The notes: generated by a model from the sequence alone, not told the origin. A DNA stretch of 64,000 bases from an uncultured bacterium (GCA_963732385.1 CAVSZB010000007.1:64001-128000), one strand, 5' to 3'; positions 39,706-61,191 are shown, counted from the stretch's first letter. A program made the numbers and translations.

Positions 39706-39717
39706 CCAGCGCCGGAG

Positions 39718-41861: not shown

Positions 41862-41908
41862 GCGCTCCCAGGACGGGGGACCGTCCGGGAACCGTCCGGG
41901 CGTCGGGG

Positions 41909-41937
41909 TTGTTGGCTATTGGTTGATGTGGTAGATT
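41909..41937 (+). promoter_or_regulatory. Possible promoter of the DUF2723 operon
   Basis: TTGTTG-17 nt-TAGATT with extended -10 TG, in a T-rich intergenic patch. Confidence 0.35.
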
Positions 41938-42030
41938 GCGCCGCGGCGGGCGGGTCCGCCGAAGCGGGGCGCCGGGGCGCCGGGGCCGGGCCCTGGGGCA
42001 TGCGGATCGAGCCGGGCGAAGGGAGCGGGT

Positions 42031-44757: not shown

Positions 44758-45803
44758 CCGGTACGGAGCTTCAGGAGCTGGTCTCATCCCTGCCCGACGG
44801 TGTGCCGCCTGCGGTAGGGCGGGGGCGGCGCGTGGTCGTGACCGGCTGCGCCGGTTTCATCGGCAGCCACCTCACGGAGGCGCTGCTGCACCTCGGATGC
44901 GAGGTCGTCGGCGTCGATGCGCTGACCGACTACTACGACCCGGCCTTCAAGCGGGAGAACCTGGCCGGCGCCCTGGCCCATCCCGGCTTCCGCTTCGTGG
45001 AGGCGGACCTGCTCGCACTCGACGCGGTCGAGTTGTTGTCCGGCGCCGCGGCCTGTTTCCACCTGGCCGCCCAGGCGGGGGTACGCGCGAGCTGGGGGCG
45101 CCACTTCACGGAGTATCTGGCCCGTAACATCCTGGCCACCCAGCATCTGCTCGAGGCGTGCCTCGATCCGGCGGTGCGCAACGGCCTGACGCGCTTCGTC
45201 TACTCGAGCTCGAGTTCAGTCTACGGCGAGCGCGCCGCTCTGCCGGTCACCGAGCAGGCGCTGCCCCAGCCGCACTCGCCGTACGGGGTGACCAAGCTGG
45301 CGGCCGAGCACCTCTGCCTGCTCTACTCCGCGAACGCCGGCGTGCCGACGAGCAGTCTGCGCTATTTCACGGTGTACGGCCCCCGTCAGCGACCCGATAT
45401 GGCGTTCCGCAAGTTCGTCGACGCGGCGCTCGACGACGGATCGTTCGCCATGTACGGCGATGGGCGCCAGACGCGCGATTTCACCTACGTGGCGGACGCC
45501 GTGCGCGCCAACCTGCTGGCCACCGCCGCGCCGGGTGTGGGGGATGTGTTCAATGTCGGCGGCGGCGCCCGCATCTCCCTGGCCGAGGCGCTCGAGCGGT
45601 TGACCGCCCTGCTGATGCCGCTGCCGGACGGGCGGACGCCGCAGATCGAGCGACATCCGGCGGCGCGCGGCGATGTCCGCGATACCTTCGCCGACCGCAC
45701 CCACGTCGAGCGGACGATCGGCTACCGCCCGACCGTGCCGTTCGACGAGGGGCTCGCGCGCCTGGTCGCGTGGGCGCGGGGCAGGAGGACGACTCGTGGC
45801 TGA
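44754..45803 (+). CDS. NAD-dependent nucleotide-sugar epimerase (UDP-glucuronate 4-epimerase-like)
   Basis: TGCAGFIGSH, HLAAQAGVR, SSSSVYG, YGVTK, RYFTVYGPRQRPDMA, RDFTYV. Confidence 0.92.
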   Translation: MTGTELQELVSSLPDGVPPAVGRGRRVVVTGCAGFIGSHLTEALLHLGCEVVGVDALTDYYDPAFKRENLAGALAHPGFRFVEADLLALDAVELLSGAAACFHLAAQAGVRASWGRHFTEYLARNILATQHLLEACLDPAVRNGLTRFVYSSSSSVYGERAALPVTEQALPQPHSPYGVTKLAAEHLCLLYSANAGVPTSSLRYFTVYGPRQRPDMAFRKFVDAALDDGSFAMYGDGRQTRDFTYVADAVRANLLATAAPGVGDVFNVGGGARISLAEALERLTALLMPLPDGRTPQIERHPAARGDVRDTFADRTHVERTIGYRPTVPFDEGLARLVAWARGRRTTRG

Positions 45804-46740
45804 ACGCGCGTCTCCGGTCTGCGACATCTCGGTCATCATCCCGGCCTACAACGAGGCGGAATCGTTGCCCGAGCTGCTCGAACGCATCGACGAGGTCGTG
45901 CGGGGCATGGGGCGCACCTACGAGGTGTGGGTGATCGATGACGGCAGCCGCGACGGCACGTTCGCGGCGGTCGAAGCGGTGGCGCGGCGCCTGCCCCAGG
46001 TCCACGCGCTGGTTTTTACCCGGAACTTCGGCAAGGCCGCGGCCCTTTCGGCCGGCTTTGCGCGGACGCGGGGGCGGATCGTCATCACCATGGACGCCGA
46101 TCTGCAGGACGACCCGGCCGAGATCCCGCGGCTGGCGGCGGCGATCGAGGCTGGCAGCGATCTGGTCTCCGGCTGGAAGCAGGACCGGCAGGACGGATTC
46201 ATCAAGAACCAGTCGTCGCGGGTCTTCAACGGGGTCACCGCGCTGATGATCGGGCTGCGGCTGCACGACTTCAACTGCGGCCTGAAAGCGTATCGCGACG
46301 AGGTGGTCCGCACCGTGCGGGTCTATGGCGAGATGCATCGCTTCATCCCCGCCATGGCCCACCTCGAGGGATTCCGCGTGACGGAACTGCCGGTGCGGCA
46401 CCACCGTCGTCGTCACGGTCGCACGAAGTACGGTGCGAACCGGTTCCTGAACGGCTTTCTTGACCTGTTGACACTGCTGTTCCTCAACTCCCGCGCCACC
46501 TCGCCGCTGCATTTTTTCGGGCGGATCGGACTGCTGATGTTCCTGCTCGGCTCCGGTATCAACGGCTACTTCCTTTTCGAGTGGGCCACCGGGCACGGCC
46601 TGCGGCTGCGGCCGCTGCTGTTGTTGGGAGTGGTCCTGTTCATCATGGCGGTCCAGTTCGTCAGTCTCGGCCTGATGTCCGAGCTGATCGTCGCCGGTCG
46701 CCATCCGGAGCAGGAATACCGTGTCCGGCGCGAATTCTGA
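45796..46740 (+). CDS. GT2 polyprenyl-phosphate glycosyltransferase (ArnC/GtrB/DPM-like, two C-terminal TMs)
   Basis: IPAYNEAESL, DDGSRDGT, RNFGKAAAL, MDADLQDDP, HDFNCGLKAY, GEMHRFIP; GGAGG SD. Confidence 0.92.
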   Translation: MAERASPVCDISVIIPAYNEAESLPELLERIDEVVRGMGRTYEVWVIDDGSRDGTFAAVEAVARRLPQVHALVFTRNFGKAAALSAGFARTRGRIVITMDADLQDDPAEIPRLAAAIEAGSDLVSGWKQDRQDGFIKNQSSRVFNGVTALMIGLRLHDFNCGLKAYRDEVVRTVRVYGEMHRFIPAMAHLEGFRVTELPVRHHRRRHGRTKYGANRFLNGFLDLLTLLFLNSRATSPLHFFGRIGLLMFLLGSGINGYFLFEWATGHGLRLRPLLLLGVVLFIMAVQFVSLGLMSELIVAGRHPEQEYRVRREF

Positions 46741-47665
46741 GCCGCGGTCGGGAGGGGAGGCGGGGCCGCTTCCCTCCTTGACGGTGGTCGTCGTCAACTG
46801 GAACGGCCGCCACCTGCTCGCCGAATGTCTCGGCTCGGTGCTGACCAACGGCTACTCTCCGCTCGAGGTGATCCTGGTCGACAACGGATCGACCGATCAT
46901 TCGGTGGAGTTTGTGCGCAAGGCGTTTCCCACGGTTTCGATCATCGTCTCGCCGGAGAATCTGCGTTGGGCGGGTGGCAACAATCTGGCGCTGCGCCGTC
47001 TGCGCGCGGAGCCGCCCCGCAACCGGCAGATCCTGCTGCTCAACAACGACACGTTCGTGCCTGAGGGCAGTCTGACGCGGCTGGTGCTGGCGCTGCACGG
47101 TGAGCCGCGGGCCTGGGCGGCCACCCCGCGCATCTGCTACTTCGACGATCCCGCCCGGGTCTGGTACGACGGCGGCGAGGCGGGGCCGCGTTCCGGCTGG
47201 ATCAGGCACCACGGCATCCGGCGTCTCGCCGGGCGCCTCTCGTTCCAGCCCCGTTTCGTGGACTGGGGCACCGGCTGTGCCCTGCTGCTCGGCGAAGACG
47301 CCCTGCGCGAGATCGGCGAACTCGACGAGAGTTTCTGGTTCTACGGCGAGGACTCCGACTATTGCCTGCGCATCAAGGCGGCGGGGGGGCGCATCCTGCA
47401 CGTGCCGACCGCCCTCGTGCTGCACCATGTGAGCGATGCGCTCGGCAGTTTCAGCCCACGCAAGGCCTACCTGAAGAGCCGCAGCCACGTCCGGCTGCTG
47501 CGGCGGCACTGGCCGCGGCGCAGTTGGCCGCTGCTCGTGCCGAGCCAGGTCGTCTTCTACGGCGGGCTGACGCTGTGGCACCTCTTTGGCGGTCGGCGCG
47601 AAACAGCCTCTGCCGCCCTGCAAGGCGTGCTCGACGAATTGCGCGGCGCCCCGCCCGGCTGCTGA
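46721..47665 (+). CDS. Glycosyltransferase family 2
   Basis: VVVNWNG, VDNGSTD, ENLRWAGGNN, LLNND, GCALL, FYGEDSDYC. Confidence 0.9.
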   Translation: MSGANSEPRSGGEAGPLPSLTVVVVNWNGRHLLAECLGSVLTNGYSPLEVILVDNGSTDHSVEFVRKAFPTVSIIVSPENLRWAGGNNLALRRLRAEPPRNRQILLLNNDTFVPEGSLTRLVLALHGEPRAWAATPRICYFDDPARVWYDGGEAGPRSGWIRHHGIRRLAGRLSFQPRFVDWGTGCALLLGEDALREIGELDESFWFYGEDSDYCLRIKAAGGRILHVPTALVLHHVSDALGSFSPRKAYLKSRSHVRLLRRHWPRRSWPLLVPSQVVFYGGLTLWHLFGGRRETASAALQGVLDELRGAPPGC

Positions 47666-47681
47666 CGGCCGCCGTCGGCGG

Positions 47682-47711
47682 TGGACACGCGGTCGAGGGC
47701 GATGCTATCCT
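47682..47711 (+). promoter_or_regulatory. Possible promoter upstream of the YfhO gene
   Basis: TGGACA-18 nt-TATCCT with extended -10 TG. Confidence 0.3.
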
Positions 47712-47756
47712 TCCCGATCCGTCCACCGTGCCGCCAGGAGAAGGAAGGAAACGGTC

Positions 47757-50378
47757 TTGTCGTCGCGACGCCCGCGAGCGACCCCGCCACCGATCGCGCC
47801 CGCGGCGGCGAATCGATCCCGTCGGCGTCTGCCGGAGGGGCTCCTGCCGCTGGTGGCGGTGCTCCTGGCGCTGGCCCTGCTCTACCCCGGCCCGTTGTTC
47901 CAGGGACGGATCTTCGTCAGCGGAGACGCGCGTAACCAGGATGCCTTCACGCTCGTCGGTGATGCGGCGCTCGCGCGCGGTATCTACCCGCAGTGGAATC
48001 CCTATCTGTTCGGCGGGATGCCTACCTTCGGCTCGCTCAGCTACACGAAATTTGTCTATCCGCCGTCGGTCGTCCTCAACTTCCTGCACGATCCCCTCGG
48101 CCTGCCGCCCCTGACCTGGCTGTTTGCGCACCTCATCTTCGGTGCATTGGGCATGGCCTGCCTGCTGCGCCGCTGGGGGGTGTCGCCCGCCGGACGGGCG
48201 TTGGGCGGGCTGGTCTGGGTGCTGGCGCCGAACGTGGTCGCGTGGTGCGTGTACGGGCACGGCTCGAAGCTTGGCGCGGCGATGTACCTGCCGTGGATCG
48301 TGGCGGGGGCGTTCGAGGTGCTGGGCGGGGGCGGTCGGCGCGCGGTGGCGCTGACGGCGCTCATGCTGGGGCTGCAACTGCTTCGCGGACACGTGCAGAT
48401 CACCTACTACACCCTGCTGGCGGTGGGGCTGCTGGCGGTGGCGCAGACCTGGCGGCCGTTCCTGCCGGCGGGTGCCACCGGCGCGGCGGCATCGTTGTCG
48501 GAACCTCCGCTCCCGGTGCGCGCCCGCCGTCTGGGGGCGCTGGCCGGGGCGCTGGCGCTCGCCTTCCTCCTCGGTGCGGTGCTGCTGTTGCCGCTGCGCG
48601 GTTACGCCGGCGCCTCGATCCGCGGCCTGTCCGCGAGCGGGGGCGGCGCCTCGTACGACTACGCCACGAACTGGAGTTTCTCGCCAGCCGAGTTGCCGAC
48701 CCTCGTGCTGCCGGCCGCCTCCGGTTTCGGCAAGGGCAGCTACTGCGGGCCGATGCCGTTCACCGACTATCCGAACTACTTCGGCTTCCTCTGGCTCGCG
48801 CTGGTGGTCGCCGCGGCCTGGGCGGCGCGGCCGCGGCTGGCCTGGGCGCTGCTCGTGCTTTCCCTGCTCGCCCTGCTGGTCTCTTTCGGACGCCATGGTT
48901 CGCCTCTGTTCGACCTGTTCTACCGGCATCTGCCCTACTTCAACAAGTTTCGCATCCCGGTGATGATCCTGATCCTGCCCACGTTCGCGCTGGCGCTGCT
49001 GGCGGCGCTCGGCGCGGACGCGCTCGCGCGCGACAGGACCGGTCCCGGCCGCGGCCGGGGGGACCGGTTGCGGGCGGCGCTGCCGGTCGGTCTGGCCCTG
49101 CTCGGCGGCGTGCTTTTGCTGGGCGCCGTCGGTCTGGCGAGAGGTCCCTACCAGGACCAGTTGCGCGCGCTGGCCGCGGGCGCCGGGCGGCCTGGTCCGG
49201 TGGCGGGCCAGCTGGCGGTGGCGTGGAATCTGCAGCGGGCCGATCTCGTGCGCATCGGCGCTCTCCTGCTCGTCGCGGGCGGCGTGCTGGCCTGGGCGGC
49301 GCGTCATCCCGGATTCCGGCGCGCCTGGCTCGGCTGGACGCTGGCTGCGCTCGTGGCGCTGGATCTCGGCGCGGTGGCGACACGCATCGTGCATCCGGAG
49401 CGGGCGCTGATCGAGGTGGGGCAGGATGCCCAGGGGCAGGCGGCGCTCGTGCGGGCGACGCCGCTGCTGGCCGACTTCGTGCCGCCTCGTCGCGATCTGG
49501 GACAGGGGCCGGTCTTCACCTCGCTCGCGCAGCAGGTCGGACACGATCGGGTCTGGCCGCTCGGCGCGCTCGGAGGCAGCGGGGATTTCATGGCGGCCGG
49601 GGTGCGTTCGCTCGGCGGGTACCATCCGGCCAAGCTGGCCGCCTTCGAGCCGATCCGGGAGCGGCTGTTCGGGCGCGAGGAGCCGGCGGCGAGACTGGCA
49701 AACTGGCTTGCCGGCCGCGTGGTGGCCGTGCCGGGCGAACTGCCGCCGCAGGCGCAGCCGTGGTTGCGGGAACTGGGCGCGGACCTCGTCTTTCCGCCGC
49801 TGCTGAGCGGCGGCGGCATGACGTTCTACGCGAACCGCGCGGCGTTGCCGCGCGCGCGGCTGTACGACCGCTGGATCGCGGTCGGTTCGCTGCCGGGCGG
49901 CGGCCAGCTGGACAATTTCCTGGAGCGGCTGCAGTCGGGCGCGTGGGGGCCGGACCGGCCGGTCGCGCTCGATCGGACGCCGGTTCCGGCCCCGCTGCCG
50001 GCCGGCGCGCCGCTGCCGGCCCCGATTTTCGAGCGGGACGACCTCGGCGAGGTGTGCCTGCGCACGACGGCGCCGGTTCCGAGCGTGTTGCTGCTGGCCG
50101 ACATGGCGGCACCCGGCTGGACGGTGTCGATCGACGGGCGTCCGGCCACCGCGTTGCGTGGCGATCTGGTGCTGCGGGCGGTGGCGGTTCCGGCTGGCGA
50201 CCATCTTGTGCGGTGGGTCTATAGCGATCCCTGGCTGCGCCGCGGTCTGGTCTGCAGCGCCGGGGGCAGCGTGATCCTCCTGCTCCTGCTCGCGCCGTGG
50301 CCGACGGTCGCGGCGCATCGCACGCGGGGGGAAGGGTCGGCGCAGCGCGATCTGTCCGGCGAAGAGGGGCGGGGATGA
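47757..50378 (+). CDS. YfhO family GT-C membrane protein
   Basis: YPQWNPYLFGGMP, HVQITYY, YATNWS, Y.GPMPFTDYPNYFG, FNKFR.P, GGYHPAKL, PGWTVSIDG, RAVAVPAGDH; TTG start after AAGGAAGG. Confidence 0.88.
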   Translation: MSSRRPRATPPPIAPAAANRSRRRLPEGLLPLVAVLLALALLYPGPLFQGRIFVSGDARNQDAFTLVGDAALARGIYPQWNPYLFGGMPTFGSLSYTKFVYPPSVVLNFLHDPLGLPPLTWLFAHLIFGALGMACLLRRWGVSPAGRALGGLVWVLAPNVVAWCVYGHGSKLGAAMYLPWIVAGAFEVLGGGGRRAVALTALMLGLQLLRGHVQITYYTLLAVGLLAVAQTWRPFLPAGATGAAASLSEPPLPVRARRLGALAGALALAFLLGAVLLLPLRGYAGASIRGLSASGGGASYDYATNWSFSPAELPTLVLPAASGFGKGSYCGPMPFTDYPNYFGFLWLALVVAAAWAARPRLAWALLVLSLLALLVSFGRHGSPLFDLFYRHLPYFNKFRIPVMILILPTFALALLAALGADALARDRTGPGRGRGDRLRAALPVGLALLGGVLLLGAVGLARGPYQDQLRALAAGAGRPGPVAGQLAVAWNLQRADLVRIGALLLVAGGVLAWAARHPGFRRAWLGWTLAALVALDLGAVATRIVHPERALIEVGQDAQGQAALVRATPLLADFVPPRRDLGQGPVFTSLAQQVGHDRVWPLGALGGSGDFMAAGVRSLGGYHPAKLAAFEPIRERLFGREEPAARLANWLAGRVVAVPGELPPQAQPWLRELGADLVFPPLLSGGGMTFYANRAALPRARLYDRWIAVGSLPGGGQLDNFLERLQSGAWGPDRPVALDRTPVPAPLPAGAPLPAPIFERDDLGEVCLRTTAPVPSVLLLADMAAPGWTVSIDGRPATALRGDLVLRAVAVPAGDHLVRWVYSDPWLRRGLVCSAGGSVILLLLLAPWPTVAAHRTRGEGSAQRDLSGEEGRG

Positions 50379-51082
50379 AAAGCTGCGTGGTCATCCCGAC
50401 CTACAACGAGGCGGAGAACATCGGCGGGCTGGTGCCGCTCGTGCTGGCACGCGACCCGGAGTTGTCGGTGCTCGTGGTCGACGACACCTCGCCCGACGGC
50501 ACGGGGGCGATTGTGCGCGCCCTGCCCGGATTCGGAACACGCGTCCACCTGTTGTCGCGGCCGGTCAAGGCGGGGCTGGGCGCCGCGTACATCGCCGGCT
50601 TCCAGTGGGTGCTCGCCCATACCGACGCCGCAGCGATCTTCGAGATGGACGCCGATTTCAGCCACGATCCCGCCGCGCTCGACCAGTTCCTGCGCGAGAT
50701 CCGCGACGCCGACGTCGTGATCGGCAGTCGCTACCTGCACGGCGTGACGGTGGTCAACTGGCCGCTGCGCCGGTTGGTGTTGAGCGTCGGCGCCAACATC
50801 TACACGCGGATCGTCACCGGGATGCCGCTCAAGGACAGCACCGGCGGCTTCAAGTGCTTCCGCCGCGAGGTGCTGGCGGCGCTGCCGCTCGAGCGCATCA
50901 AGAGTGACGGCTACGGGTTCCAGATCGAGGTCAACCACCTTTGCTGGCGGCGGGGCTACCGCATCAGGGAGATCCCGATCACGTTCACGGACCGGCGGGT
51001 CGGCATCTCCAAGATGTCGAAGCGGATCATCTGGGAAGCGATGTGGATGGTCTGGGCGTTGCGGCTGAAGCGGATCTTCTAG
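50375..51082 (+). CDS. Polyprenol monophosphomannose synthase (DPM1/Ppm1-like GT2)
   Basis: IPTYNEAENI, VDDTSPDGTG, GLGAAYIAGF, MDADFSHDP, DSTGGFKCFRR, GYGFQIE, FTDRRVGISKMS. Confidence 0.94.
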   Translation: MKSCVVIPTYNEAENIGGLVPLVLARDPELSVLVVDDTSPDGTGAIVRALPGFGTRVHLLSRPVKAGLGAAYIAGFQWVLAHTDAAAIFEMDADFSHDPAALDQFLREIRDADVVIGSRYLHGVTVVNWPLRRLVLSVGANIYTRIVTGMPLKDSTGGFKCFRREVLAALPLERIKSDGYGFQIEVNHLCWRRGYRIREIPITFTDRRVGISKMSKRIIWEAMWMVWALRLKRIF

Positions 51083-51105: not shown

Positions 51106-52782
51106 GTGAAGCTTTCGATCATCATCGTCCACTACGATACGCCCGACGATCTGGCGCGCTGTCTCGATTCGCTGGGCGCGCATCCGCCAGCCTGTCCGCA
51201 TGAGATCGTGGTGGTGGACAACGCTTCGCATGCTTCGGGACTGACCGAGCTGCGCGCGCGTCACTCCGGTGTCCGCTGGCTGCTCAACCACGAGAACGTC
51301 GGCTACGCGCGCGGCGTGAATCAGGGTTTCGCCGCGGCGCCGGCCGACTACCATCTCGTGCTCAACCCCGACATCGTGGTCGCGCCGGGCGCGTTGGACG
51401 AGCTGCTTGCCTTCGCCGAGGCCCGACCGCGCGCCGGTATCGTGGGGCCGCAACTGCTCAACGAGGATGGGACGGTCCAGGACTCCTGCCGCCGCTTCTA
51501 CACCTTCCGGGCTCTGCTGCTGCGGCGGACCTTCCTGGGCCGCCTCTGGCCCCGCGCCCGCGCCGTGGAAGCCCACCTGATGCGCGATTTTGACCACGAC
51601 CGGGAGCGGGCGGTGGACTGGGTGCTCGGCGGCTGCATGCTGGTGCGGCGGGCGGCGCTGGAGCGGGTCGGACCGCTCGACCGGCGGTTCTTCCTCTACT
51701 TCGAGGATGTCGACTGGTGTTTCCGGATGTGGCAGGCGGGGTGGGAGGTGCTCTATTTTCCCGGCGCGCGCTTCACCCACCGGCACCGGCGCCAGAGCGC
51801 GAAGGGGGGGGCGCTGCGTCGCGGTTTCTGGCTCCACCTGTCCAGCCTGATCTCGTTCTATGAGAAGTGGGGCCTGCTGGTCTATCTGTTCAAGCGGTGG
51901 CGTGGCCCGGTGGGGGTGGCGCTGCAGTGGGGGATCGACATGGCGGCGCTCGGCGGGGCGCTGCTGGGCGCGTATGCGCTGCGCTCCGCCGTGAACCCGC
52001 TGTTTCCTGAACCGCTGTTCCCCCTGCGCGACTACGGCCCGCTCTTCTTCTTCGGCGCGCTGCTCGCCACGGTGACCTTCCTGCTGCGCGGCCGGTACCG
52101 CGGCCGGCCCGCTCGCGGCCCGGTCGGGATGGCGAGGCGCGCGCGTGAGACCGGCACCGTTGCCCTGCTGTTGCTGGCCAGCACCTACCTGAGCCACCAG
52201 CAGACCTACAGCCGGGCTGTCCTGCTGCTGTTTGCTCCGCTGGCGACGGTGGCGCTCGCGCTCGGTGAAGGGTTGTTCGCCGCCGTGCGGCGGCGCCTCG
52301 AGCGCGGCTGGCTGTCGCTGGAACGGACGCTGCTCGTGGGTTCGCCCGCCGCGGTCGGGGCGTGGCTCGACGGCCATGGCGACGGTCGTGCGCTCGGGCT
52401 CGATCCGGTCGGCTATCTCGCCCCGGCGCCGGCGCACTCCACTCCCGGCCCGTTGGCCGGCGGGGCGGTCCCGTGGCTCGGCGCGCCCGAGTCGCTGCCG
52501 GACCTGGTCGAGCGGTACCGCATCTCGCAGGTGGTGTTCTGGGACTGGCCGCGGGAAGACGCGGGGGCGCGCGATTCCCTGGACGCCTTGCGCCGTCGCC
52601 GCATCCGCCTGCGCTGGCGGGTGGAGGAGGCGTGGCTGCTGGAGGCCGGCGCCCGCTCGGAACCGTTCGGCGGGAGCGGCAGCGTGGTCCTGGATCCGCC
52701 GTCCGTATCCGCACCGTCCGGTCTGCGCCGCGGGTCCGCCCGGAGCGGCGAACCTGGGCAGGCGGGCGGAGATGCCATATAG
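51106..52782 (+). CDS. GT2 (WbbL-like) glycosyltransferase fused to a WcaJ-type 4-TM plus Rossmann-like domain
   Basis: KLSIIIVHY, VVDNAS, NVGYARGVN, LNPD, DWVLGGCMLVRR, FFLYFEDVDWC; then TM helices, YSRAVLLL, RTLLVG, PVGYL, ISQVV. Confidence 0.85.
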   Translation: MKLSIIIVHYDTPDDLARCLDSLGAHPPACPHEIVVVDNASHASGLTELRARHSGVRWLLNHENVGYARGVNQGFAAAPADYHLVLNPDIVVAPGALDELLAFAEARPRAGIVGPQLLNEDGTVQDSCRRFYTFRALLLRRTFLGRLWPRARAVEAHLMRDFDHDRERAVDWVLGGCMLVRRAALERVGPLDRRFFLYFEDVDWCFRMWQAGWEVLYFPGARFTHRHRRQSAKGGALRRGFWLHLSSLISFYEKWGLLVYLFKRWRGPVGVALQWGIDMAALGGALLGAYALRSAVNPLFPEPLFPLRDYGPLFFFGALLATVTFLLRGRYRGRPARGPVGMARRARETGTVALLLLASTYLSHQQTYSRAVLLLFAPLATVALALGEGLFAAVRRRLERGWLSLERTLLVGSPAAVGAWLDGHGDGRALGLDPVGYLAPAPAHSTPGPLAGGAVPWLGAPESLPDLVERYRISQVVFWDWPREDAGARDSLDALRRRRIRLRWRVEEAWLLEAGARSEPFGGSGSVVLDPPSVSAPSGLRRGSARSGEPGQAGGDAI

Positions 52783-52849
52783 TGGAAAGAGTTGTCCGCT
52801 CCGCGGGGCCCCCTGAATGGTCTGGTCGTGTCGGTCGGAGGTTGCCGAA

Positions 52850-55309
52850 GTGATGTTATGCCTGCTTGGCGGGACCGGTCCGCACGCCCGGCGCGCGATC
52901 GCGGCGGTTCTTTTGTGCCTGCCTGCGCTGCCGGCGGTGGCGCAGGAGGTTTCCTTCACCTCGCTGACGGCGGCGCGCGAATGCCGCGTCCTGCTGCCGG
53001 ACGGCGAACAGATCTATGGAGGGCTGAGCGACGGCGGCGTGGTGGTCTGGAATGCCGCCGACCCCGCGCTCTACACCCGCTGGACGGTGGAGGATGGCCT
53101 TTCCGGCCAGCGGGTCAACGCGCTGGCCACGTCCGGATCCCATATCTGGGTAGCTACCTCGGGGGCTGGACTCACGCGGGTGACGCCAGGGGTGGTGCCG
53201 GAGTTCCGGCAGTACGCCAATCTCGGCGGACTCGACATCACCACCGTCATCGCGACGACCCGCGGCACCGCGGAGGTGGTCTACTATGGCCTGCTTGGCG
53301 CCGGCGTGGGGGTTATCAATAGTGGTCTGCCCGGCGCGATCTACACTCAGGTGGAGCACGGGCTGGTCGGCGACGACGTCAGCGCGCTCGCCTTCCTCGG
53401 CAATGACCTGTGGGTCGGCACGGAGGAGGGGGTGTCACGCTTCGCCGCCAACGTGTTCACGACCGAGGTGGCCGGTCTGACCGACCTCCGGATCAACACC
53501 CTGCAGGCCGTGGGAGACACGCTGCTGTTCGCCGGCACTTTCACCGACGGCGTTTACCGCTGGGACGACGGCGCGGCCCGGTGGGAAAGACTTGGGGCGC
53601 TCGACGGCCTGGTGCTCGCGATCGCCGCGCAGGGTGGGGCGGTGTGGGCGCTGATCGAGGGTGTCGGCAGCGAGAACCGGCTCTGGCGCTGGGACGGCGC
53701 CACGTGGACCGCTGCCAGCCTGCCCGAGTCGCGCACGCGCGTGATCGCCCGGAACGACGGTGAACTCTGGTGCGCCGGGCTGCGCATCGATCCGGACTGC
53801 GACCCGGACGGGCGGGCCACGCGGGCCTTCCTGGCCCGGCGTGATGAAGCGGCCTGGTCGTCGTGGGGCATGCACGAACTGCTCTTTCTTGGCGTGGACG
53901 GCGTCTCCTTCGGACCCGACGGCGCGTTCTGGCTCGGATCGCGCGAGGGGGTGGGGGTGGCGCGGCGCACCGTCGACGGCCAATGGGGGCAGGTGGCCGG
54001 TCTTGCCACGGCCGCCAACGACTCCGCCGGGCTGTTCGCTTTCGGGGCCAACATCCTCTCTTTGGCGGCCGCGCCCGACGGGGATGTCTGGGTCTCGCAG
54101 TACGATTTCCGCGTGCCGGGGCAGGGAGGGCTGCTGCGCCTGCGTCCCGGCGCCGCGGTCGATCTGACGGACGCCGCCGGGGTGCTGCTGCCGCCGACGG
54201 AAGCCCCTCCCGGCCACCACCGCACGGTGCGGGTCGTGCGGCATCCCGATGGTCCCCTGATGATGTGCACGGACCAGCTGGGGGTGGATGTGCTGGTCGA
54301 TCCGGCGCGTCCCCGTGATCCGGCGGCCTGGGTGCGTCTGCCGGTCGATACGGAAGGTCTGGGCGGGGGGATCGTGCGCGACGCGGTCGTGGCGCGGCGG
54401 GACGTGGTCTGGTTCACCGTCAACGGGATCGGCCTGATGCGCTGGGACATCAATGGACCGGCCGGCCCGGAGGCCCCGCTGACGTGGTCCGACCTCGCCG
54501 ACGACGTCTGGACCGGACCGATCGCCGCCTTGTCCGGCACGAATTTCAACTTTGCCCAGGCGCGGGCGCTCGCCGCGCCGGCCGACGGCACGCTGTGGGC
54601 CGGCGGCAGTGGCGGCGTGGCGCATCTGCGCCCGCTCGACGGCGGCGGCGCCGTCCTGCTGGCGGCGTATGGCGCGAAAGCGGACGTCTATCTCGCCGGA
54701 CTCCTCACCGGCACGGTTTCCGACCTCGAACTCGACGACAACGGCGACCTGTGGGTCGCGCTCGAGGGGGGGCTCAACCGGATCCGGCAGCGCGGGGACC
54801 AAACCACCATCGACGCCTGGACCAACCTGGAAGCCTATGCTGCCTACAGCCTTGGCAATCTCTACTCGCCGAGCGTGCTCGCCGGTCTGCCGGGCGCCAT
54901 CTTCTACGAACTGGCGTCCGATCCCGGCTCCGGGAGATTGCTCGCCGGCAGCAATTACGGCGCGGTGATGATCGACGTCGCCCCGCTTGGCGCGGTGGAC
55001 GCGGAGGTGCTTGCGGGGCTGTTCCTCTATCCCAACCCGTTCGCGGGCGGCACCGGGGCGGCGGGGCTGAAACTGGACGGCGTGACCGTCGAGGTGACGA
55101 CCACCGGGTCGTCCGTGACCGGAGGGGTCACGGTGGAGGTGTACGACCTGCAGGGGCAGCTCGTGCACCGGGCGAGCCACGTGGGCACCGGCGATCCGTT
55201 CTGGGACGGCCGCAATCTGCAGGGCGATCCGGTCAGCAGCGGACTCTACATGGTAAAGGTGACTCTGGATGGACAGAACGCGGTGCGGACGCTTGCGGTC
55301 GTGCGCTGA
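52850..55309 (+). CDS. PorZ-like beta-propeller protein with a C-terminal T9SS type A / FlgD-Ig domain
   Basis: Signal peptide; Reg_prop-like repeats (DGLSGQRVNALA..IWVAT..GL, GLVGDDVSALA..LWVGTEEGVS, VSDLELDDNGDLWVA..GGL); C-terminus LYPNPF..VEVYDLQGQLV..WDGRNLQGDPVSSGLYMV..RTLAVVR; GGAGGT SD before the GTG. Confidence 0.8.
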   Translation: MMLCLLGGTGPHARRAIAAVLLCLPALPAVAQEVSFTSLTAARECRVLLPDGEQIYGGLSDGGVVVWNAADPALYTRWTVEDGLSGQRVNALATSGSHIWVATSGAGLTRVTPGVVPEFRQYANLGGLDITTVIATTRGTAEVVYYGLLGAGVGVINSGLPGAIYTQVEHGLVGDDVSALAFLGNDLWVGTEEGVSRFAANVFTTEVAGLTDLRINTLQAVGDTLLFAGTFTDGVYRWDDGAARWERLGALDGLVLAIAAQGGAVWALIEGVGSENRLWRWDGATWTAASLPESRTRVIARNDGELWCAGLRIDPDCDPDGRATRAFLARRDEAAWSSWGMHELLFLGVDGVSFGPDGAFWLGSREGVGVARRTVDGQWGQVAGLATAANDSAGLFAFGANILSLAAAPDGDVWVSQYDFRVPGQGGLLRLRPGAAVDLTDAAGVLLPPTEAPPGHHRTVRVVRHPDGPLMMCTDQLGVDVLVDPARPRDPAAWVRLPVDTEGLGGGIVRDAVVARRDVVWFTVNGIGLMRWDINGPAGPEAPLTWSDLADDVWTGPIAALSGTNFNFAQARALAAPADGTLWAGGSGGVAHLRPLDGGGAVLLAAYGAKADVYLAGLLTGTVSDLELDDNGDLWVALEGGLNRIRQRGDQTTIDAWTNLEAYAAYSLGNLYSPSVLAGLPGAIFYELASDPGSGRLLAGSNYGAVMIDVAPLGAVDAEVLAGLFLYPNPFAGGTGAAGLKLDGVTVEVTTTGSSVTGGVTVEVYDLQGQLVHRASHVGTGDPFWDGRNLQGDPVSSGLYMVKVTLDGQNAVRTLAVVR

Positions 55310-55330
55310 ATCTTCCGCGGGAAAGCCGAC

Positions 55331-56806
55331 GTGAGCCGCCCCGCGGGCGACGCGCCGCGGCGTCTGCTGATCATCGGCGCCGGTGAGGCGGGGCAGTCGC
55401 TGGTGCGCGAACTGCAGGCCGGCGGCTGGCCGGTCACGCCGGTAGGTTTCCTCGACGACGATCCGGCGCTGCGGGGAGAGTCGCCGTGCGGCCTGCCGGT
55501 GCTCGGCGCCACGGCCGATCTGCCGGACGCAGCCGTGCGCAGCGGGGCGCAGGAGATCCTCATCGCCATCCCTTCCGCCACTGGCGCGGTCATCCGCCGG
55601 CTGGTGCTGCTGTGCCGGCGCGCGGGGCTGCCGGTACGCATCGTGCCGGGCATCCGCGCCATCATCGAGGGGGACGTCCGCTTCGACCAGGTGCGGCCGG
55701 TCGCGCCCGACGACCTGCTTGGCCGCGAGAGCGTCACCTTCCGCGTCGATGGCGCGCGCGAACTCGTGGCGGGACGGCGCGTGCTGGTGACAGGAGCAGG
55801 TGGTTCCATCGGTGGCGAACTGTGCCGGCAACTGCTGCCGTTCGCGCCCGCGGAGCTGCTGCTGCTCGGTCGCGGCGAGAACAGCCTGTTCGAGATCGCC
55901 GCGGAACTGGAGCCGCGGCGGGGCAAGGTCGCGCTGCGCACGCTGATCTGCGATGTGCGGGATGGTGAACGGCTCGCTGTCCTGGCCGGACGTCACGGCG
56001 TCGATCTCATCCTGCACGCCGCCGCGCACAAGCACGTGCCGCTGATGGAGGAGAATCCCGAGGAGGCGGTGGCGGTCAACGTGCTCGGCACCGCGAACCT
56101 GATCCACTTCGCCCGCCAGGTCGGCGCTGAGCGTCTGGTGCTGGTGTCGACCGACAAGGCGGCCATCCCCGCGAGCATCATGGGCGCCACGAAACGGGTG
56201 GCCGAGGAACTGGTGCGCGCGGCCGGAGTCGCCGGCGGTCCGACACGCTTCCTGACCGTCCGCTTCGGCAACGTGCTCGGCAGCCGTGGTTCCGTGGTGC
56301 CGCTGTTCCAGGACCGGATCCGCCGCGGCCTGCCGCTGCCGGTCACGGACCGGGCCATGACCCGCTACTTCATGACCATCCGGGAGGCGGCGCAGCTCGT
56401 GATCGAGGCGATGGCTCTGGGCGAGAGCGGCGCCACCTACATCCTCGAGATGGGGGAGCCGGTGTCGATCCTGGAACTGGCGCGCAATCTGCTCGCCCTG
56501 TCCGGGTTCGATCCTGACGGCGGCGACGGCGGCCCCGGCATCGTCATCACCGGCGCCCGCCCGGGCGAGAAGCTGACCGAGGAACTCGTCGCCCGCGACG
56601 AAACGCTGGCGCCGGGGGCGAATCCGCTGATCCGGCGCGCGGTCACCGCGCGCCCCGTGCTGGCCGATCCGGAGGCGGTCGTGGCTTCCTTGCTGGGGCC
56701 GGCCCGCGCCGGTGATATGGCGGGGGTGCGGCAGGTCCTGGCGCGCCTGCCGGGCCTGGCGGCGGTGACGGCCGTTTTCCCCGCGCCGGAGGTGACCCGT
56801 CCATGA
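55331..56806 (+). CDS. CapD/PglF-like UDP-GlcNAc 4,6-dehydratase (no N-terminal TM region)
   Basis: LLIIGAGEAG, VGFLDDD, DLLGRE, VTGAGGSIGGELCRQ, HAAAHKHVP, STDKA..MGATKR, VRFGNVLGSRGSV, RPGEKL. Confidence 0.93.
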   Translation: MSRPAGDAPRRLLIIGAGEAGQSLVRELQAGGWPVTPVGFLDDDPALRGESPCGLPVLGATADLPDAAVRSGAQEILIAIPSATGAVIRRLVLLCRRAGLPVRIVPGIRAIIEGDVRFDQVRPVAPDDLLGRESVTFRVDGARELVAGRRVLVTGAGGSIGGELCRQLLPFAPAELLLLGRGENSLFEIAAELEPRRGKVALRTLICDVRDGERLAVLAGRHGVDLILHAAAHKHVPLMEENPEEAVAVNVLGTANLIHFARQVGAERLVLVSTDKAAIPASIMGATKRVAEELVRAAGVAGGPTRFLTVRFGNVLGSRGSVVPLFQDRIRRGLPLPVTDRAMTRYFMTIREAAQLVIEAMALGESGATYILEMGEPVSILELARNLLALSGFDPDGGDGGPGIVITGARPGEKLTEELVARDETLAPGANPLIRRAVTARPVLADPEAVVASLLGPARAGDMAGVRQVLARLPGLAAVTAVFPAPEVTRP

Positions 56807-57981
56807 CTCCCGATTCAGGTGCCGAGCCCGCGTTCCTGCCGTTTTTCCGCCCCAGTCTGGGCGAGGAGGAGATCGCGGCGGTGGCCGACACTCTGCGCTC
56901 CGGGTGGCTCACCTACGGGCCGCGCACGCGCGAGTTCGGCCGCGCCTGCGCCGACTATCTCGGAGCGACGCACGGTGTGCCGGTCGCCTCGTGTTCGGCC
57001 GGACTGTTCCTGGCGCTCAAGGCGCTCGGGGTCGGCCCGGGCGACGAAGTGGTGTTGCCGTCGCTCACTTTCACCGCCACGCTCTCGGCGATCCTGCACT
57101 GCGGCGCGACGCCGATCCTGGCCGATGTGGAAGACGCCACGCTCGGCCTCGATCCGGAGCGGGTCGCCGAGTTGCTGAGTCCGCGCACCCGGGCGATCGT
57201 GCCGGTCCACATGGCGGGACACCCCTGCCGCATCCGGGAACTGCTCGCCCTCGCGCGATCGCGCGGCGTGGCGGTGGTCGAGGATGCGGCGCACGCCTTC
57301 GGCGCGGCGGTGGAGGGCCGCCGCCTTGGGACGTTCGGCGACGCCACGGTCTTCTCGTTCTACGCGACGAAGTGCATCACCACCGGCGACGGCGGCCTGA
57401 TCACCACGGCCGACGACGGTCTCGCGCGCGAGCTGGAGCTGCTCTGCTTCCACGGCATGGACGGCAACGCGTGGCAGCGCTACGGCGACCGCGGGCGGTG
57501 GTACTACGAGATCGTGCGGGTCGGCTGGAAGCTGCACCTGGGCGATCCGGCGGCGGCGCTCGGCCTGGTTCAGCTGCGCCGGGCCGACGCGTTGCAGGCG
57601 CGACGCGCGGCGCTGGCGCGGGGCTTCACCGAGCGGTTGGCCGACCTGCCCGGCGTGACCCTGCCGCTCGAGGCGCCGTGGGCCACGCATGCCTGGCATC
57701 TCTACCTGCTGCGCGTCGATCCGGAGGTCGTGCGCGAGGGGCGCGACGGGGTGATCGCCGATCTCGCCGACGCGCGCATCGGAAGTTCGGTCCACTTCAT
57801 TCCGCTGCACCATCATCCAGCCTACCGCGAACTGCTCGCGCCGCAGGCGGACCGCCTGGCGCGCACCGAACGTTATTTCCGCGAAGCGGTCACTCTGCCG
57901 CTCTTCCCGGCGATGACCGACGCGGAGGCGCAACGGGTCACCGATGCGGTGCGGGCGAGCGTCCGCCGCCGCGTGCGCTGA
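56803..57981 (+). CDS. DegT/DnrJ/EryC1/StrS family sugar aminotransferase
   Basis: SGWLTYGP, GPGDEV, PVHMAG, EDAAHAFGA, FSFYATKCITTGDGG (PLP lysine), TLPLFP. Confidence 0.95.
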   Translation: MTPDSGAEPAFLPFFRPSLGEEEIAAVADTLRSGWLTYGPRTREFGRACADYLGATHGVPVASCSAGLFLALKALGVGPGDEVVLPSLTFTATLSAILHCGATPILADVEDATLGLDPERVAELLSPRTRAIVPVHMAGHPCRIRELLALARSRGVAVVEDAAHAFGAAVEGRRLGTFGDATVFSFYATKCITTGDGGLITTADDGLARELELLCFHGMDGNAWQRYGDRGRWYYEIVRVGWKLHLGDPAAALGLVQLRRADALQARRAALARGFTERLADLPGVTLPLEAPWATHAWHLYLLRVDPEVVREGRDGVIADLADARIGSSVHFIPLHHHPAYRELLAPQADRLARTERYFREAVTLPLFPAMTDAEAQRVTDAVRASVRRRVR

Positions 57982-59069
57982 TGGCGCCGGGGGCCGGTCC
58001 TGCGTCGCCGCCTCTGGTGGTGACGGTCGAGCCGGCGCCGCCGCCCGGCTGGGAGGCGCTGCTTGCGGATGATCCGTACGCTACATTTTTCCACACGTCC
58101 CTCTGGAGCGACGCGCTGCGCCGGCACGCGGGCGGCGTGACGCCAATCTGGTTCGTCGCGCGCGCGCAGGGGCGTTGCGTGGGCGGGCTGTCAGCGGTGG
58201 CGCGACGGCGCGGGCCGCTGCGCCTGCTGCAGAGCCACTTCGACGGCACCGCGGGCGGGCCGCTGATCGCGCCCGACCTCCCTGAGGCGGAGCGTGACGC
58301 GGTCGCGGCGTCGCTGTTGGCGGCATGGGCGCGCGCGGCGAGGCGTCCGGACGTGGCCGCCGCCGCGCTGGTCCTGTCGTCTGACGCCGACACCCGCTGG
58401 GGGGGCGGGCTCGCGCGGTGCGGCTGGCGCCGGCGCGAGTTGCCGTTCGCGACGATTCCGCTCGTCGGCGGACCGGAGGCGGTCGAGTACGGCGTCCTGC
58501 CCAAGAACCGGCGCAACGAGCGCAATCGGGCCCTGCGACGCGGCTGCGATGCCGGAGTGACGACCGATCCGGGCGCGCTCACCGAGTACTATCCGGTCTA
58601 CCTTGCCGCGGCGCGCCGCTGGGGGGTCGCGCCGACGCCGGAGGCGCTTTTGCACGATCTGCTCGCGCGCGGCGCGGGCGCGGCCTTCCTCAGTTGGGTG
58701 CGGCGCGACGGTCGTCTCATCGGCGGACACGTCTGCTTCCGGCACGGCGCCGAAGTCGTCGCCTGGAACGGCGCCACCCTGCCGGAGCACGCCGAGGTCT
58801 TCCCTGCCACGCTGCTGATCTGGACCGATGTCGTCGAAGCGTGTCGGGGCGGCGCGCAGCGGCTCGACCTCGGGGGCAGCGGCGGCATCGCCGGAGTCGC
58901 CCGCTTCAAGGAACTGCTCGGCGCGAGCTTCGCGACGCGGGGCTGCTGGGAGACGGCGGCGCCCCTGTACCGGATCTGGCGGCGGCTGAGCGCGGCCAGG
59001 CGTCGCGTGGCGGGCGCAGCGACCGGCGGCAACGCGGCCGCGGCATCGCACGGGGGAGGCGCTCCGTGA
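57981..59069 (+). CDS. FemAB-like GNAT acyltransferase (Acetyltransf_6 type)
   Basis: WEALL..ATFFHT..W, KNRRNERNRALRRG, GRLIGG, LLIWTDVVEAC..GAQRLDLGGS..GVARFK..GA; ATG overlaps the upstream stop. Confidence 0.8.
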   Translation: MAPGAGPASPPLVVTVEPAPPPGWEALLADDPYATFFHTSLWSDALRRHAGGVTPIWFVARAQGRCVGGLSAVARRRGPLRLLQSHFDGTAGGPLIAPDLPEAERDAVAASLLAAWARAARRPDVAAAALVLSSDADTRWGGGLARCGWRRRELPFATIPLVGGPEAVEYGVLPKNRRNERNRALRRGCDAGVTTDPGALTEYYPVYLAAARRWGVAPTPEALLHDLLARGAGAAFLSWVRRDGRLIGGHVCFRHGAEVVAWNGATLPEHAEVFPATLLIWTDVVEACRGGAQRLDLGGSGGIAGVARFKELLGASFATRGCWETAAPLYRIWRRLSAARRRVAGAATGGNAAAASHGGGAP

Positions 59070-60370
59070 GGCTGCTGCGCACCGGTGGAGAGGTGCTCGC
59101 GGCACGCGCCGCGCAGGTCGTGGCGGGCGCGGCCGTCGGTCTGCTGGTGGCGCGGGCACTCGGCCCCGCGGCGCAGGGACATTACAGCCTGACGATCGCC
59201 GTAATGACCTTCGCGGGCGCTCTCTTCAACGGCGGCGTTGGTCTGTCCGCGGTGCCGCCGCTGCGACGTCACGAACTGTCCCTGCGTCGGGTCGTGCGCG
59301 CGCAGGGGACGTGGCTGGCGTTCGCCGGCGCGGGATTGCTGGCCGTGGGCGTCGTCGCGACCGCCGGGCCCGCGGCCGCCTGGACCGCCACGCACCTCGG
59401 CTGGACCGGAGCCGTGGCGGCCGCGGCAGCCGTCGGTGCAGCCGCTCTGCTCGCCTGCGACGTGCTGTTCTACGATCTGCTCGCACAGGGACGCCCGGTC
59501 GCCGGCGCGGTGGCCGTACTGGCGCGGCCCGGCTCGCATCTGCTGTTGCTCACGGTCGTTCTCGCGCTGACCGGCGGGCTGCGTCCGGGCGCGGCCGTCG
59601 GTCTGTTCGCGGCGGCGCAGGTCGTCGGCGCGGGGGCGCTGTTCGCTCTGCTGCGGCGGCGGGAGCCGACCGGAGAGCAGGTGGGAGAGCCTCCGGTCGC
59701 GACGGGCGAGGACTGGCCACGCGGCGCTCCCGCGCTGGCGCGCGCTCTGCTGCGCTCCGGCTGGCTCGGACAACTTTCCGCCGTCGCTTCGCTGCTGCAC
59801 ATGCGGCTCAATTTCGCGTTGCTGGCGGCATGGCACGGGCCGGCGGCGGTGGGGGTGTTCTCGGTGGCGGTGCTGGTGGGCGAACTGCTCTGGAATCTGC
59901 CGTCTGCGCTCAGCCCGATCCTCGTCTACAGTTCGGCCGCGGCCGGCGACGCCGGCACCCGGGATCGTCTGGCGGCGCGCGCTGTGCGCGTCGGACTGAT
60001 CGCCACGGCGGCGGTGGCGCTGCCGCTCGGGCTGGCCGCCGGCTGGCTGCTCCCGCGTCTGTTCGGCGGCGAGTACGCGGCCGCCGTACCGGCGCTGCGT
60101 GCCCTGCTGCCGGGCATCGTGGCCTTCGCGCCGGGCGCGGTTCTGGCCGGCGACTTCATCGGGCGCGGCCGTCCCGGCTGGAACGCGCAGGCGAGCGGCT
60201 TCACGCTCGCCATCAATCTGGTCGCGGGGGTGGCGCTGGTGCCGCGCTTCGGTCTGACAGGAGCTGCGTGGGCCTCGACCATCGCTTACGCCAGCGGTGC
60301 AGTCTGGATGGTGCTGCGTTTTCGCCGCGCCAGCGGCTTGACGTGGCACGGACTGCTCGGGCTGGCCTGA
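59066..60370 (+). CDS. Wzx-type oligosaccharide flippase
   Basis: VARALGPAAQGHYSL, AAVGVFSVA, LFGGEYAAAV..LR.LLPG, LVPRFGLTGAAWAS; about 12 TM helices. Confidence 0.87.
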   Translation: MRLLRTGGEVLAARAAQVVAGAAVGLLVARALGPAAQGHYSLTIAVMTFAGALFNGGVGLSAVPPLRRHELSLRRVVRAQGTWLAFAGAGLLAVGVVATAGPAAAWTATHLGWTGAVAAAAAVGAAALLACDVLFYDLLAQGRPVAGAVAVLARPGSHLLLLTVVLALTGGLRPGAAVGLFAAAQVVGAGALFALLRRREPTGEQVGEPPVATGEDWPRGAPALARALLRSGWLGQLSAVASLLHMRLNFALLAAWHGPAAVGVFSVAVLVGELLWNLPSALSPILVYSSAAAGDAGTRDRLAARAVRVGLIATAAVALPLGLAAGWLLPRLFGGEYAAAVPALRALLPGIVAFAPGAVLAGDFIGRGRPGWNAQASGFTLAINLVAGVALVPRFGLTGAAWASTIAYASGAVWMVLRFRRASGLTWHGLLGLA

Positions 60371-60684: not shown

Positions 60685-61191
60685 ATGATCGAGGCCACCC
60701 GTCACGACCTGCCGCAGTTGCCCGAACCGGTGTTTGCCGGCGGCTACGAGCGTGCCGTGGACGGCAAGGGGCGGTTCAACCTCCCCTTCCGTTTCCGGCG
60801 GCGCGGCGGCAAGGCGCGGGACAGGAGCGCGGTGCGGGAGGCCGGCCCGAAGGAGCGGTATACGATCGTCAGGGGTCCCGACGCCGTTCTGCTCGTCTAT
60901 CCCTATGACGTCTGGCTCGAGGTGTTCGATCAGTTGAGTCGCGACGCCCAGACTCCGGAGGAGCGCGACCAGGTGCGACGCCTCAGCCACGGCAGCCACA
61001 CGCTGGAGCTCGATGCCCAGGGGCGGGTCGCGGTTCCGCAGGAGTTCCTCTCCCACGCAGGACTGTCAGGCCGGGTTCTCTGCATCGGGATGCGGCGGCT
61101 GATGGAGCTTTGGGATCCGGAGCGGTACCGGCGCAAGCAGGAGGCGGCGCCGGCTCTCGATCCCCGCACGGAGGCCAGGCTGTACGCGTGA
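60685..61191 (+). CDS. mraZ: Division/cell wall cluster transcriptional repressor MraZ
   Basis: FAGGYERAVDGKGRFNLP and ELDAQGRVAVP (two DxxGR motifs), G...MELWD. Confidence 0.93.
   Translation: MIEATRHDLPQLPEPVFAGGYERAVDGKGRFNLPFRFRRRGGKARDRSAVREAGPKERYTIVRGPDAVLLVYPYDVWLEVFDQLSRDAQTPEERDQVRRLSHGSHTLELDAQGRVAVPQEFLSHAGLSGRVLCIGMRRLMELWDPERYRRKQEAAPALDPRTEARLYA

Follow-up and report, generated by a model that had tools for sequence, protein, structure and literature searches.

The window, a 64,000-nucleotide stretch of DNA from an uncultured bacterium (GCA_963732385.1, CAVSZB010000007.1:64001-128000), carries at 52850..60370 a run of five plus-strand genes for a beta-propeller protein, two sugar-modifying enzymes, a Fem-type transferase and a flippase. 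The propeller protein is very probably an orthologue of PorZ, a protein of type IX secretion systems (T9SS), and the reading favoured here, with modest confidence, is that the neighbouring sugar genes build an amino-acid-tipped anchor glycan which PorZ presents to PorU for tethering secreted proteins. The cluster is a variant of known T9SS glycan anchoring that extends across the phylum, in an apparently motor-less lineage. A homologue 84% identical to the propeller protein carries the label Candidatus Krumholzibacteriia, which supports the suggestion of the first-pass annotation, made from the sequence alone, that the lineage is likely to lie outside Bacteroidota. The genome of the window (G000) is 95.8% complete.

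The propeller gene, porZ (52850..55309), has a GTG start, with an ATG at 52853, and encodes 819 amino acids with a signal peptide, two predicted beta-propellers and a T9SS type A C-terminal domain (CTD) with a terminal Arg. The N-terminus is signal-peptide-like (RR-AIAAVLLCLPALP-AVA), the C-terminus reads YPNP...WDG...SGLY...AVVR, and profile searches recover Reg_prop and the CTD model TIGR04183 (29.4 bits; cut-off 23). The next two genes encode a CapD/PglF-type UDP-N-acetylhexosamine (UDP-HexNAc) 4,6-dehydratase (55331..56806; 491 amino acids), which has CoA_binding_3 and Polysacc_synt_2 (335 bits) without an N-terminal membrane segment, and a DegT-family pyridoxal phosphate-dependent aminotransferase (56803..57981; 392 amino acids; DegT, 384 bits). 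The Fem-type double-GNAT protein (hereafter GNAT; 57981..59069; 362 amino acids), a predicted aminoacyl-tRNA-dependent N-aminoacyltransferase, matches Acetyltransf_6 with 64 bits and, weakly, FemX and TIGR03019 (38 bits; cut-off 260). The run ends with a Wzx-like flippase of the MOP superfamily (59066..60370; 434 amino acids), for which a MurJ role is possible; it reaches 23.7 bits with Polysacc_synt (PF01943; cut-off 28.2) and 16.8 bits with TIGR01695. The junctions are, in order, a 21-nt gap and ATGA, TGATG and GTGA overlaps. Coordinates, junctions, orientation and C-terminal motifs are thus as first described, and the family assignments hold, that of the flippase from below its Pfam cut-off.

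The identification of PorZ rests on structure, a collinear profile match and chromosomal position. In a Foldseek search with the AlphaFold model (predicted; pLDDT 92.6), PorZ was the best match with TM-scores of 0.61/0.64, as against 0.27-0.34 for sensor domains, so that the propeller does not group there with generic sensor propellers, the outcome that the first-pass annotation had named as fatal to its proposal. This preference fits the difference in domain arrangement between PorZ and BT4663 (PMC5121618). A profile of 38 orthologues matched PorZ (5M11) in the Protein Data Bank (PDB) in one collinear stretch, 104-776 against 52-743, with an E value of 1.4e-30, and hhalign aligned it with 28 Bacteroidota PorZ sequences over 699 columns, end to end and including the CTD. 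The PorZ hidden Markov model NF052228 matches all 38 orthologues (best E 1.9e-33), and Atlas neighbours of the propeller include PorZ_N clusters. Among 155 phylum genomes, 152 carry the gene, with hardly an exception as a single copy.

The machinery on which PorZ would act is encoded in the same genome. SprA scores 452 bits (cut-off 200) and exceeds its cut-off in all 41 phylum genomes tested. A PorU-like protein reaches 416 bits, just below the cut-off of 420, and its NYIGHG and FSCD motifs, whose residues we take to be the catalytic His and Cys, align with the catalytic His/Cys region of Porphyromonas gingivalis PorU (6ZA2); PorU matches occur in 101 of 101 phylum genomes, 88 of them over the cut-off. 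A PorV-family gene lies directly 3' of porU, five PorV/PorQ-family genes exceed the cut-off, the type A CTD model gives 67 matches, and LpxC and two more C25 peptidases are encoded. The expectation of the first-pass annotation that core T9SS genes accompany the cluster is therefore borne out for SprA, PorU with its His and Cys, PorV-family barrels and CTD proteins, but not for PorL and PorM, which were not detected. GldM was found in none of 101 phylum genomes (4 of 4 Bacteroidota controls were positive) and GldL exceeded its cut-off in none of 61 (a search without a positive control), and both searches could overlook divergent homologues. GldN gave no match in the genome of the window, in a search whose controls did not match either and which did not extend to GldK. 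In deep-branching Bacteroidota with bona fide porZ, 5 of 5 genomes likewise lacked a GldM match. The conservation of SprA, PorU, PorV and PorZ without detectable GldM or GldL suggests what is apparently a motor-less T9SS. The absence of gld genes from Rhodothermus- or Chlorobi-like genomes may already have been noticed in older surveys.

Further genes surround these components. The porU-porV locus (L014:6474-19997, L015:25-3907; G000:C7:221474-238907) continues with genes for an M6-like protease with a CTD, for two exported proteins without annotation, for an NHL protein, for a large protein that has a short SprA-like segment and for a member of the Omp85 family, which are candidate new T9SS components. 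PorV/PorQ-family genes are paired with genes for a TonB-dependent receptor and a CTD-like protein, or for an M6-like protein (L020:7821-14703; L160:4012-7991; L021:6033-9755), possibly as dedicated carrier-cargo pairs. In a genome of family f5, a Peptidase_C25 gene directly follows the glycan cluster (L088:18451-19551).

The GNAT most likely N-aminoacylates an amino sugar. A profile search with it returned two aminoacyl-tRNA-dependent peptide synthases first and then FemX, and a structural search with its model placed Sba18/Sbb17 best (two entries being streptothrisamine-bound), again followed by FemX, at 23-25% structural-alignment identity. The invariant K310 and near-invariant F309 align with K305 and F304 of FemX, of which K305 is the catalytic residue (PMC12945691). 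By analogy with these enzymes, aminoacyl-tRNA would be the donor. The Fem-type assignment of the first-pass annotation has thereby gained in precision, as the closest relatives are the amino-sugar aminoacyltransferases Sba18/Sbb17.

Linkage was compared in 40 loci from seven families of the class. The GT2-TM-CoA_binding_3 glycosyltransferase gene (GT2-TM-CoA; 51106..52782, +; GT2, glycosyltransferase family 2) lies directly 5' of the propeller gene in 37 of the 38 loci with upstream sequence, and mraZ or rsmH falls inside the fetched stretch in 32 of 40. The Fem-like gene, present in 151 of 155 phylum genomes and mostly single-copy, is located within 6 kb 3' of the propeller gene on the same strand in 129 of the 138 genomes with both positions listed; eight of the other nine are split over contigs and one is unlinked. 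Judged by gap size in the 129 linked genomes, porZ and GNAT are separated by nothing (20), a CapD-sized gene (50), a DegT-sized gene (14) or both (44), with one further genome. The conserved core consists of GT2-TM-CoA, porZ and the Fem-type transferase rather than of the five-gene block. In other families the flippase gene is followed by genes for GT4, a membrane protein of roughly 500 residues and a methyltransferase, family f2 has no flippase at the locus (2/2 loci), and seven f2-like metagenome loci have the order propeller-DegT-GNAT with no CapD or flippase match. The fixed five-gene unit first proposed has accordingly been given up; the linkage in relatives on which that proposal depended stands for the propeller and Fem-like genes and lapses for CapD and DegT, which are often missing. 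A related-locus search in genomes gave three close loci and six weak ones. In one genome only (G019; L080) has the propeller gene moved away from the glycan cluster, and this genome has two Fem-like copies.

Chromosomal position also connects the window with Bacteroidota. Twenty Bacteroidota porZ loci were extended; they had been chosen by hand among the lower scorers of 86 matches, seven of them for a seen or expected GT2 neighbour. In nine, porZ directly follows ribH; locus L149 has the order ribH-porZ-GT2-mraZ-rsmH-ftsL-ftsI. In seven of the 20 (Balneolaceae-labelled where named), porZ is followed by orthologues of GT2-TM-CoA and of the polyprenol-phosphate GT2 of the window (the latter 46-50% identical in Balneolaceae-labelled neighbourhoods) and by a WcaJ-type transferase. 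As in the window, porZ in Balneolaceae-, Rhodothermus- and Ignavibacteriales-labelled loci adjoins ribH, mraZ or the same GT2 genes, and these shared neighbours give independent support for the PorZ identity. Unlike in the window, no Fem-type, CapD, DegT or flippase match lies near porZ in any of the 20 extended loci.

The closest solved relative of the DegT protein is ArnB, a C4 aminotransferase, which is consistent with C4 amination. Within the family of the window (f1), a DegT orthologue (at least 63% identity) is present in 25 of 58 genomes. The remaining 33 comprise 24 with a 300-354-bit paralogue elsewhere, four with weaker or partial matches and five with none; such a paralogue occurs in only one of the 25 genomes with a local copy, a complementary distribution. 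Ten of 14 fetched replacement-DegT loci adjoin a gene for a monotopic sugar-phosphate transferase, and the setting is often a variable O-antigen-like or polysaccharide cluster. Elsewhere in the genome of the window, G000:C7:297592-300714 (L152:7592-10714) encodes a DegT protein, a WbaP-type transferase and a sugar 3-dehydrogenase-like protein, possibly a 3-amino-sugar route and an alternative source of the acceptor amine.

A pathway can be proposed from these components. The genome encodes SprA, PorU with intact His and Cys, PorV/PorQ-family barrels and dozens of CTD proteins, and the propeller as PorZ is strongly supported. An amino sugar would be made, here most simply a 4-amino-6-deoxy-HexNAc through CapD and DegT, and in relatives often through a DegT of the same subfamily encoded elsewhere. 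The Fem-type enzyme, judging from its fold and catalytic Lys, would place the amino acid of an aminoacyl-tRNA on the sugar amine and leave the alpha-amine free. In the least certain steps, GT2, GT4 and GT-C enzymes may assemble the glycan on a polyprenol carrier, and the glycan may cross the inner membrane via this or another flippase and be joined to lipopolysaccharide (LPS) or a similar lipid. PorU would then, on the pattern of Porphyromonas, Tannerella and Prevotella, exchange the CTD of the cargo for the sugar-borne amine. That enzymes of the cluster make the anchor at all seems somewhat better than an even prospect. The specific chain of CapD, DegT, GNAT and Wzx is put forward more tentatively, since three of the four genes involved are either ambiguous or not always present at the locus. 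A broader proposal, likewise tentative and rather short of even, is that Krumholzibacteriota keep a phylum-wide anchor operon of a GldLM-less T9SS, with porZ and a tRNA-dependent amino-sugar aminoacyltransferase in the ancestral order ribH...porZ...mraZ of the FCB (Fibrobacteres-Chlorobi-Bacteroidetes) group, and that this would be the missing route to Prevotella-like N-aminoacyl-deoxyhexose linkers.

A number of observations weigh against the anchor-glycan reading, and rival explanations draw on them. The propeller might be an ordinary CTD cargo or the detached propeller of a two-component sensor, a very improbable and largely refuted explanation to which several searches nonetheless lend something. 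With NF052228 the single protein scores 38.7 bits, through the CTD only, and misses the cut-off of 260, which is read here as a sign that the protein has diverged from a model centred on Bacteroidota. In a PDB search with the single sequence the sensor domain 4A2L was the only find, the profile being needed to reach 5M11, and in the profile search sensor propellers outscore PorZ in total, but only as several stretches. In hhalign the sensors, a set without CTD and picked with the propeller's own profile, tie with PorZ in score over 579 columns. Reg_prop occurs in 36 of the 38 orthologues and PorZ_N in only one. A quick tree without an outgroup gave three separate clades, and midpoint rooting places the propeller beside the sensors; with 42 rows (about every third sequence), a quick method, compositional bias and sensors chosen with the query's profile, this tree cannot decide sisterhood. 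The top 50 VIA-align entries lack 5M11 and are led by single WD40 propellers, a result uninformative for a 790-residue model. Against a sensor or cargo origin stand the TM-score of PorZ, nearly twice that of the sensors, the CTD in place of the Y_Y_Y and kinase parts, the near-universal single copy and the neighbours shared with bona fide porZ; moreover, the two proteins of this genome that score higher on a PorZ profile end in receiver-like domains and are hybrid kinases. More serious, though still doubtful, is an ancient neighbourhood of genes with separate jobs: porZ would have kept its place between ribH and mraZ from a deep FCB ancestor onwards, the nearby genes would make a general N-aminoacyl-sugar surface glycan (O-antigen-like, or protein-linked via GT-C), and the T9SS anchor would come from another pathway. 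The whole ribH-to-mraZ block is conserved, and porZ linkage is not demonstrably tighter than mraZ linkage, so that linkage alone is no proof of shared function; the phylum genomes share ancestry, and counts of them are not independent. Where porZ follows ribH in Rhodothermus- and Ignavibacteriales-labelled loci, neither a GNAT nor a flippase match lies close by. CapD- and DegT-sized genes are found together in only 44 of the 129 linked genomes and are both missing in 20, no DegT match at E<=1e-60 exists in 5 of 58 family genomes, and the replacement DegTs may serve O-antigen instead. Among 18 metagenome loci of distant GNAT homologues, 13 show a DegT gene nearby, which favours an amino-sugar acceptor; several of these loci are redundant and none has a porZ match. 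DegT and Fem-like genes are also paired in unrelated polysaccharide loci without a porZ match, and this module is not specific to T9SS. The GNAT profile matches just 6 of 121 Bacteroidota genomes, and the GNAT is therefore not demonstrated as a VimA orthologue. Other amino-sugar genes of the genome, including the DegT near the sugar 3-dehydrogenase-like gene, could supply a separate pathway. However, the GNAT is retained as widely, and mostly as single-copy, as porU, sprA and porZ, whereas O-antigen genes usually vary. It abuts porZ in the 20 genomes in which CapD and DegT are lost, and it is the sole match in the genome of the window to its Fem-type profile, while PorU needs an amine acceptor.

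The remaining explanation assigns the Fem-type enzyme and the flippase to peptidoglycan, the one as a bridge enzyme resembling FemX and the other as a lipid II flippase of non-canonical type, both encoded just before the dcw cluster. It is improbable for the pair and less so, though doubtful, for the flippase alone. The GNAT and flippase genes directly precede mraZ, no MurJ exceeds the TIGR01695 cut-off in the genome of the window, and of 61 phylum genomes only 17 have a PF03023 match above 140 bits. Family f2, without a flippase at the locus, has a strong canonical MurJ in 3 of 3 genomes (337-425 bits). The locus flippase could thus be a lipid II flippase and MurJ substitute, and its first-pass role as the Wzx of the anchor has lost ground accordingly; a rough count of transmembrane segments gave no distinction between Wzx and MurJ. 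Several points speak against peptidoglycan. MurE has the DNPR motif in this genome and in 16 of 17 relative matches (the remaining one is cut short), and this motif is typical of meso-diaminopimelate peptidoglycan, normally without a Fem bridge. The GNAT is nearer to Sba18/Sbb17 than to FemX, and in one genome (G048) a strong MurJ occurs along with the locus flippase. A second, 503-residue MOP flippase, encoded beside an Omp85-family gene (G000:C5:184782-185090 and G000:C3:329718-331229 are listed) and single-copy in 23 of 23 family genomes, is itself a candidate lipid II flippase. Assembly of an anchor glycan for PorZ and PorU remains the preferred reading of the cluster.

The five genes stand at the 3' end of a larger set of co-oriented genes, which runs from 38923, after ribH-nusB, to before mraZ (60685..61191, +), the first gene of the dcw cluster and the conserved right boundary of the glycan cluster. 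The five genes of the first-pass annotation are real, and the start of the cluster has moved from 52850 to this upstream position. At least ten co-oriented, mostly glycan-related genes precede 52850. The distal part (38923..50378, +) encodes a methyltransferase, GT4, LPG_synthase_TM, a TMEM260-like GT-C, an epimerase, an ArnC-like GT2, a GT2 and a YfhO-like membrane protein, and is followed by a polyprenol-phosphate sugar synthase-like GT2 (50375..51082, +) and by GT2-TM-CoA. The GT2-TM-CoA protein has 558 amino acids in the window, 567-577 in two close relatives and about 660-740 in most relatives, in which the extra C-terminal part can match Bac_transf (L086); a literature search gave no decision between GtfC and GtrA. 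A sigma-70-like promoter match just 5' of the propeller gene (52755..52783, +; 9/12 positions, a consensus match only) falls where the lost segment of the shortened GT2-TM-CoA gene would be. A STAS-domain gene (61220-61645), conserved in the loci of the family, is inserted between mraZ and rsmH. Three metatranscriptome runs of one study contain 4-10% of the words, and contigs, mostly 90-99% alike, cover all 30 bins and some gene junctions; these contigs may be DNA and show no transcript, and no claim made here rests on them.

No more than three Bacteroidota species have a T9SS linker sugar of known identity, and the route to N-alanyl-deoxyhexose is described as unknown (PMC11969387). With a porZ-linked cluster that extends across the phylum, specific candidate enzymes become available for assay in vitro without culturing the organism. 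If the anchor-glycan reading is right, aminoacyl-sugar anchoring is older than Bacteroidota. A conserved set of SprA, PorU, PorV and PorZ without detectable GldL or GldM prompts the question of how such a T9SS is energised. The extension of lineage alone is modest, because there is already mention of a possible T9SS in several further FCB phyla (PMC11285876). The novelty outside Bacteroidota claimed by the first-pass annotation is reduced to that extent and survives in part, as no paper in the searchable literature contains both 'T9SS' and 'Krumholzibacter' and none there describes a motor-less or Krumholzibacteriota T9SS; this literature leaves out most subscription papers and supplements, and component surveys could list these genomes.

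Compared with the P. gingivalis attachment complex (PorU, PorV, PorQ, PorZ) with A-LPS (PMC5121618; PMC12398890; PMC13086638), the system of the window has in common a PorZ-fold protein with CTD, PorU, PorV/Q barrels, SprA, LPS genes, a Fem/VimA-type transferase and glycosyltransferases. It differs in belonging to another phylum, in the position of porZ inside a glycan cluster, in that GldM and GldL were not detected, and in its sugar chemistry. P. gingivalis and Tannerella forsythia use seryl- or glycyl-diaminouronic linkers made by Wbp and Vim enzymes, the P. gingivalis form being 2-N-seryl-3-N-acetyl-glucuronamide, made by WbpA/B/D/E(PorR) and VimE/VimA (PMC7468200), and a linker of this type sits on a pentasaccharide joined to O-LPS (PMC13086638). 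No Wbp dehydrogenase (WbpA/B), acetyltransferase (WbpD) or VimE deacetylase is encoded in the five-gene run (VimE was sought there and not genome-wide). In the Wbp/Vim pathway, as in the one proposed here, the proposed role of a GNAT of the TIGR03019-like group is to add the cargo-receiving amino acid, the identity of which follows the VimA allele (PMC7468200). PorR/WbpE aminates C3 and VimE frees the C2 amine, whereas the 4,6-dehydratase and ArnB-like aminotransferase of the window point to C4 of a deoxy sugar. The analogy with P. gingivalis chemistry is thus not supported in the form given by the first-pass annotation, and its 4-amino-6-deoxy product finds a better counterpart in Prevotella intermedia. 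There the linker is an N-alanyl-deoxyhexose, WbpB, WbpD, VimA and VimE are lacking, and the pathway that adds alanine to the deoxyhexose is stated to be unknown (PMC11969387). This is the product class expected from CapD, DegT and a Fem-type transferase, and P. intermedia is a closer analogue than P. gingivalis, although the linkage position there is unknown and no Prevotella orthologue of the GNAT was identified in this analysis. All three characterised T9SS linkers bear an N-linked amino acid (PMC7468200; PMC11969387). Outside T9SS, Orf11 of BD-12 biosynthesis moves Gly from Gly-tRNA to streptothrisamine (PMC12945691). Sba18/Sbb17 (PDB 9WQY, 9WQX), Orf11 and FemX (4II9) share with the GNAT its predicted double-GNAT fold and the conserved Phe-Lys pair; they work in antibiotic or peptidoglycan pathways, unlike the GNAT of the window, which is proposed to serve protein anchoring.

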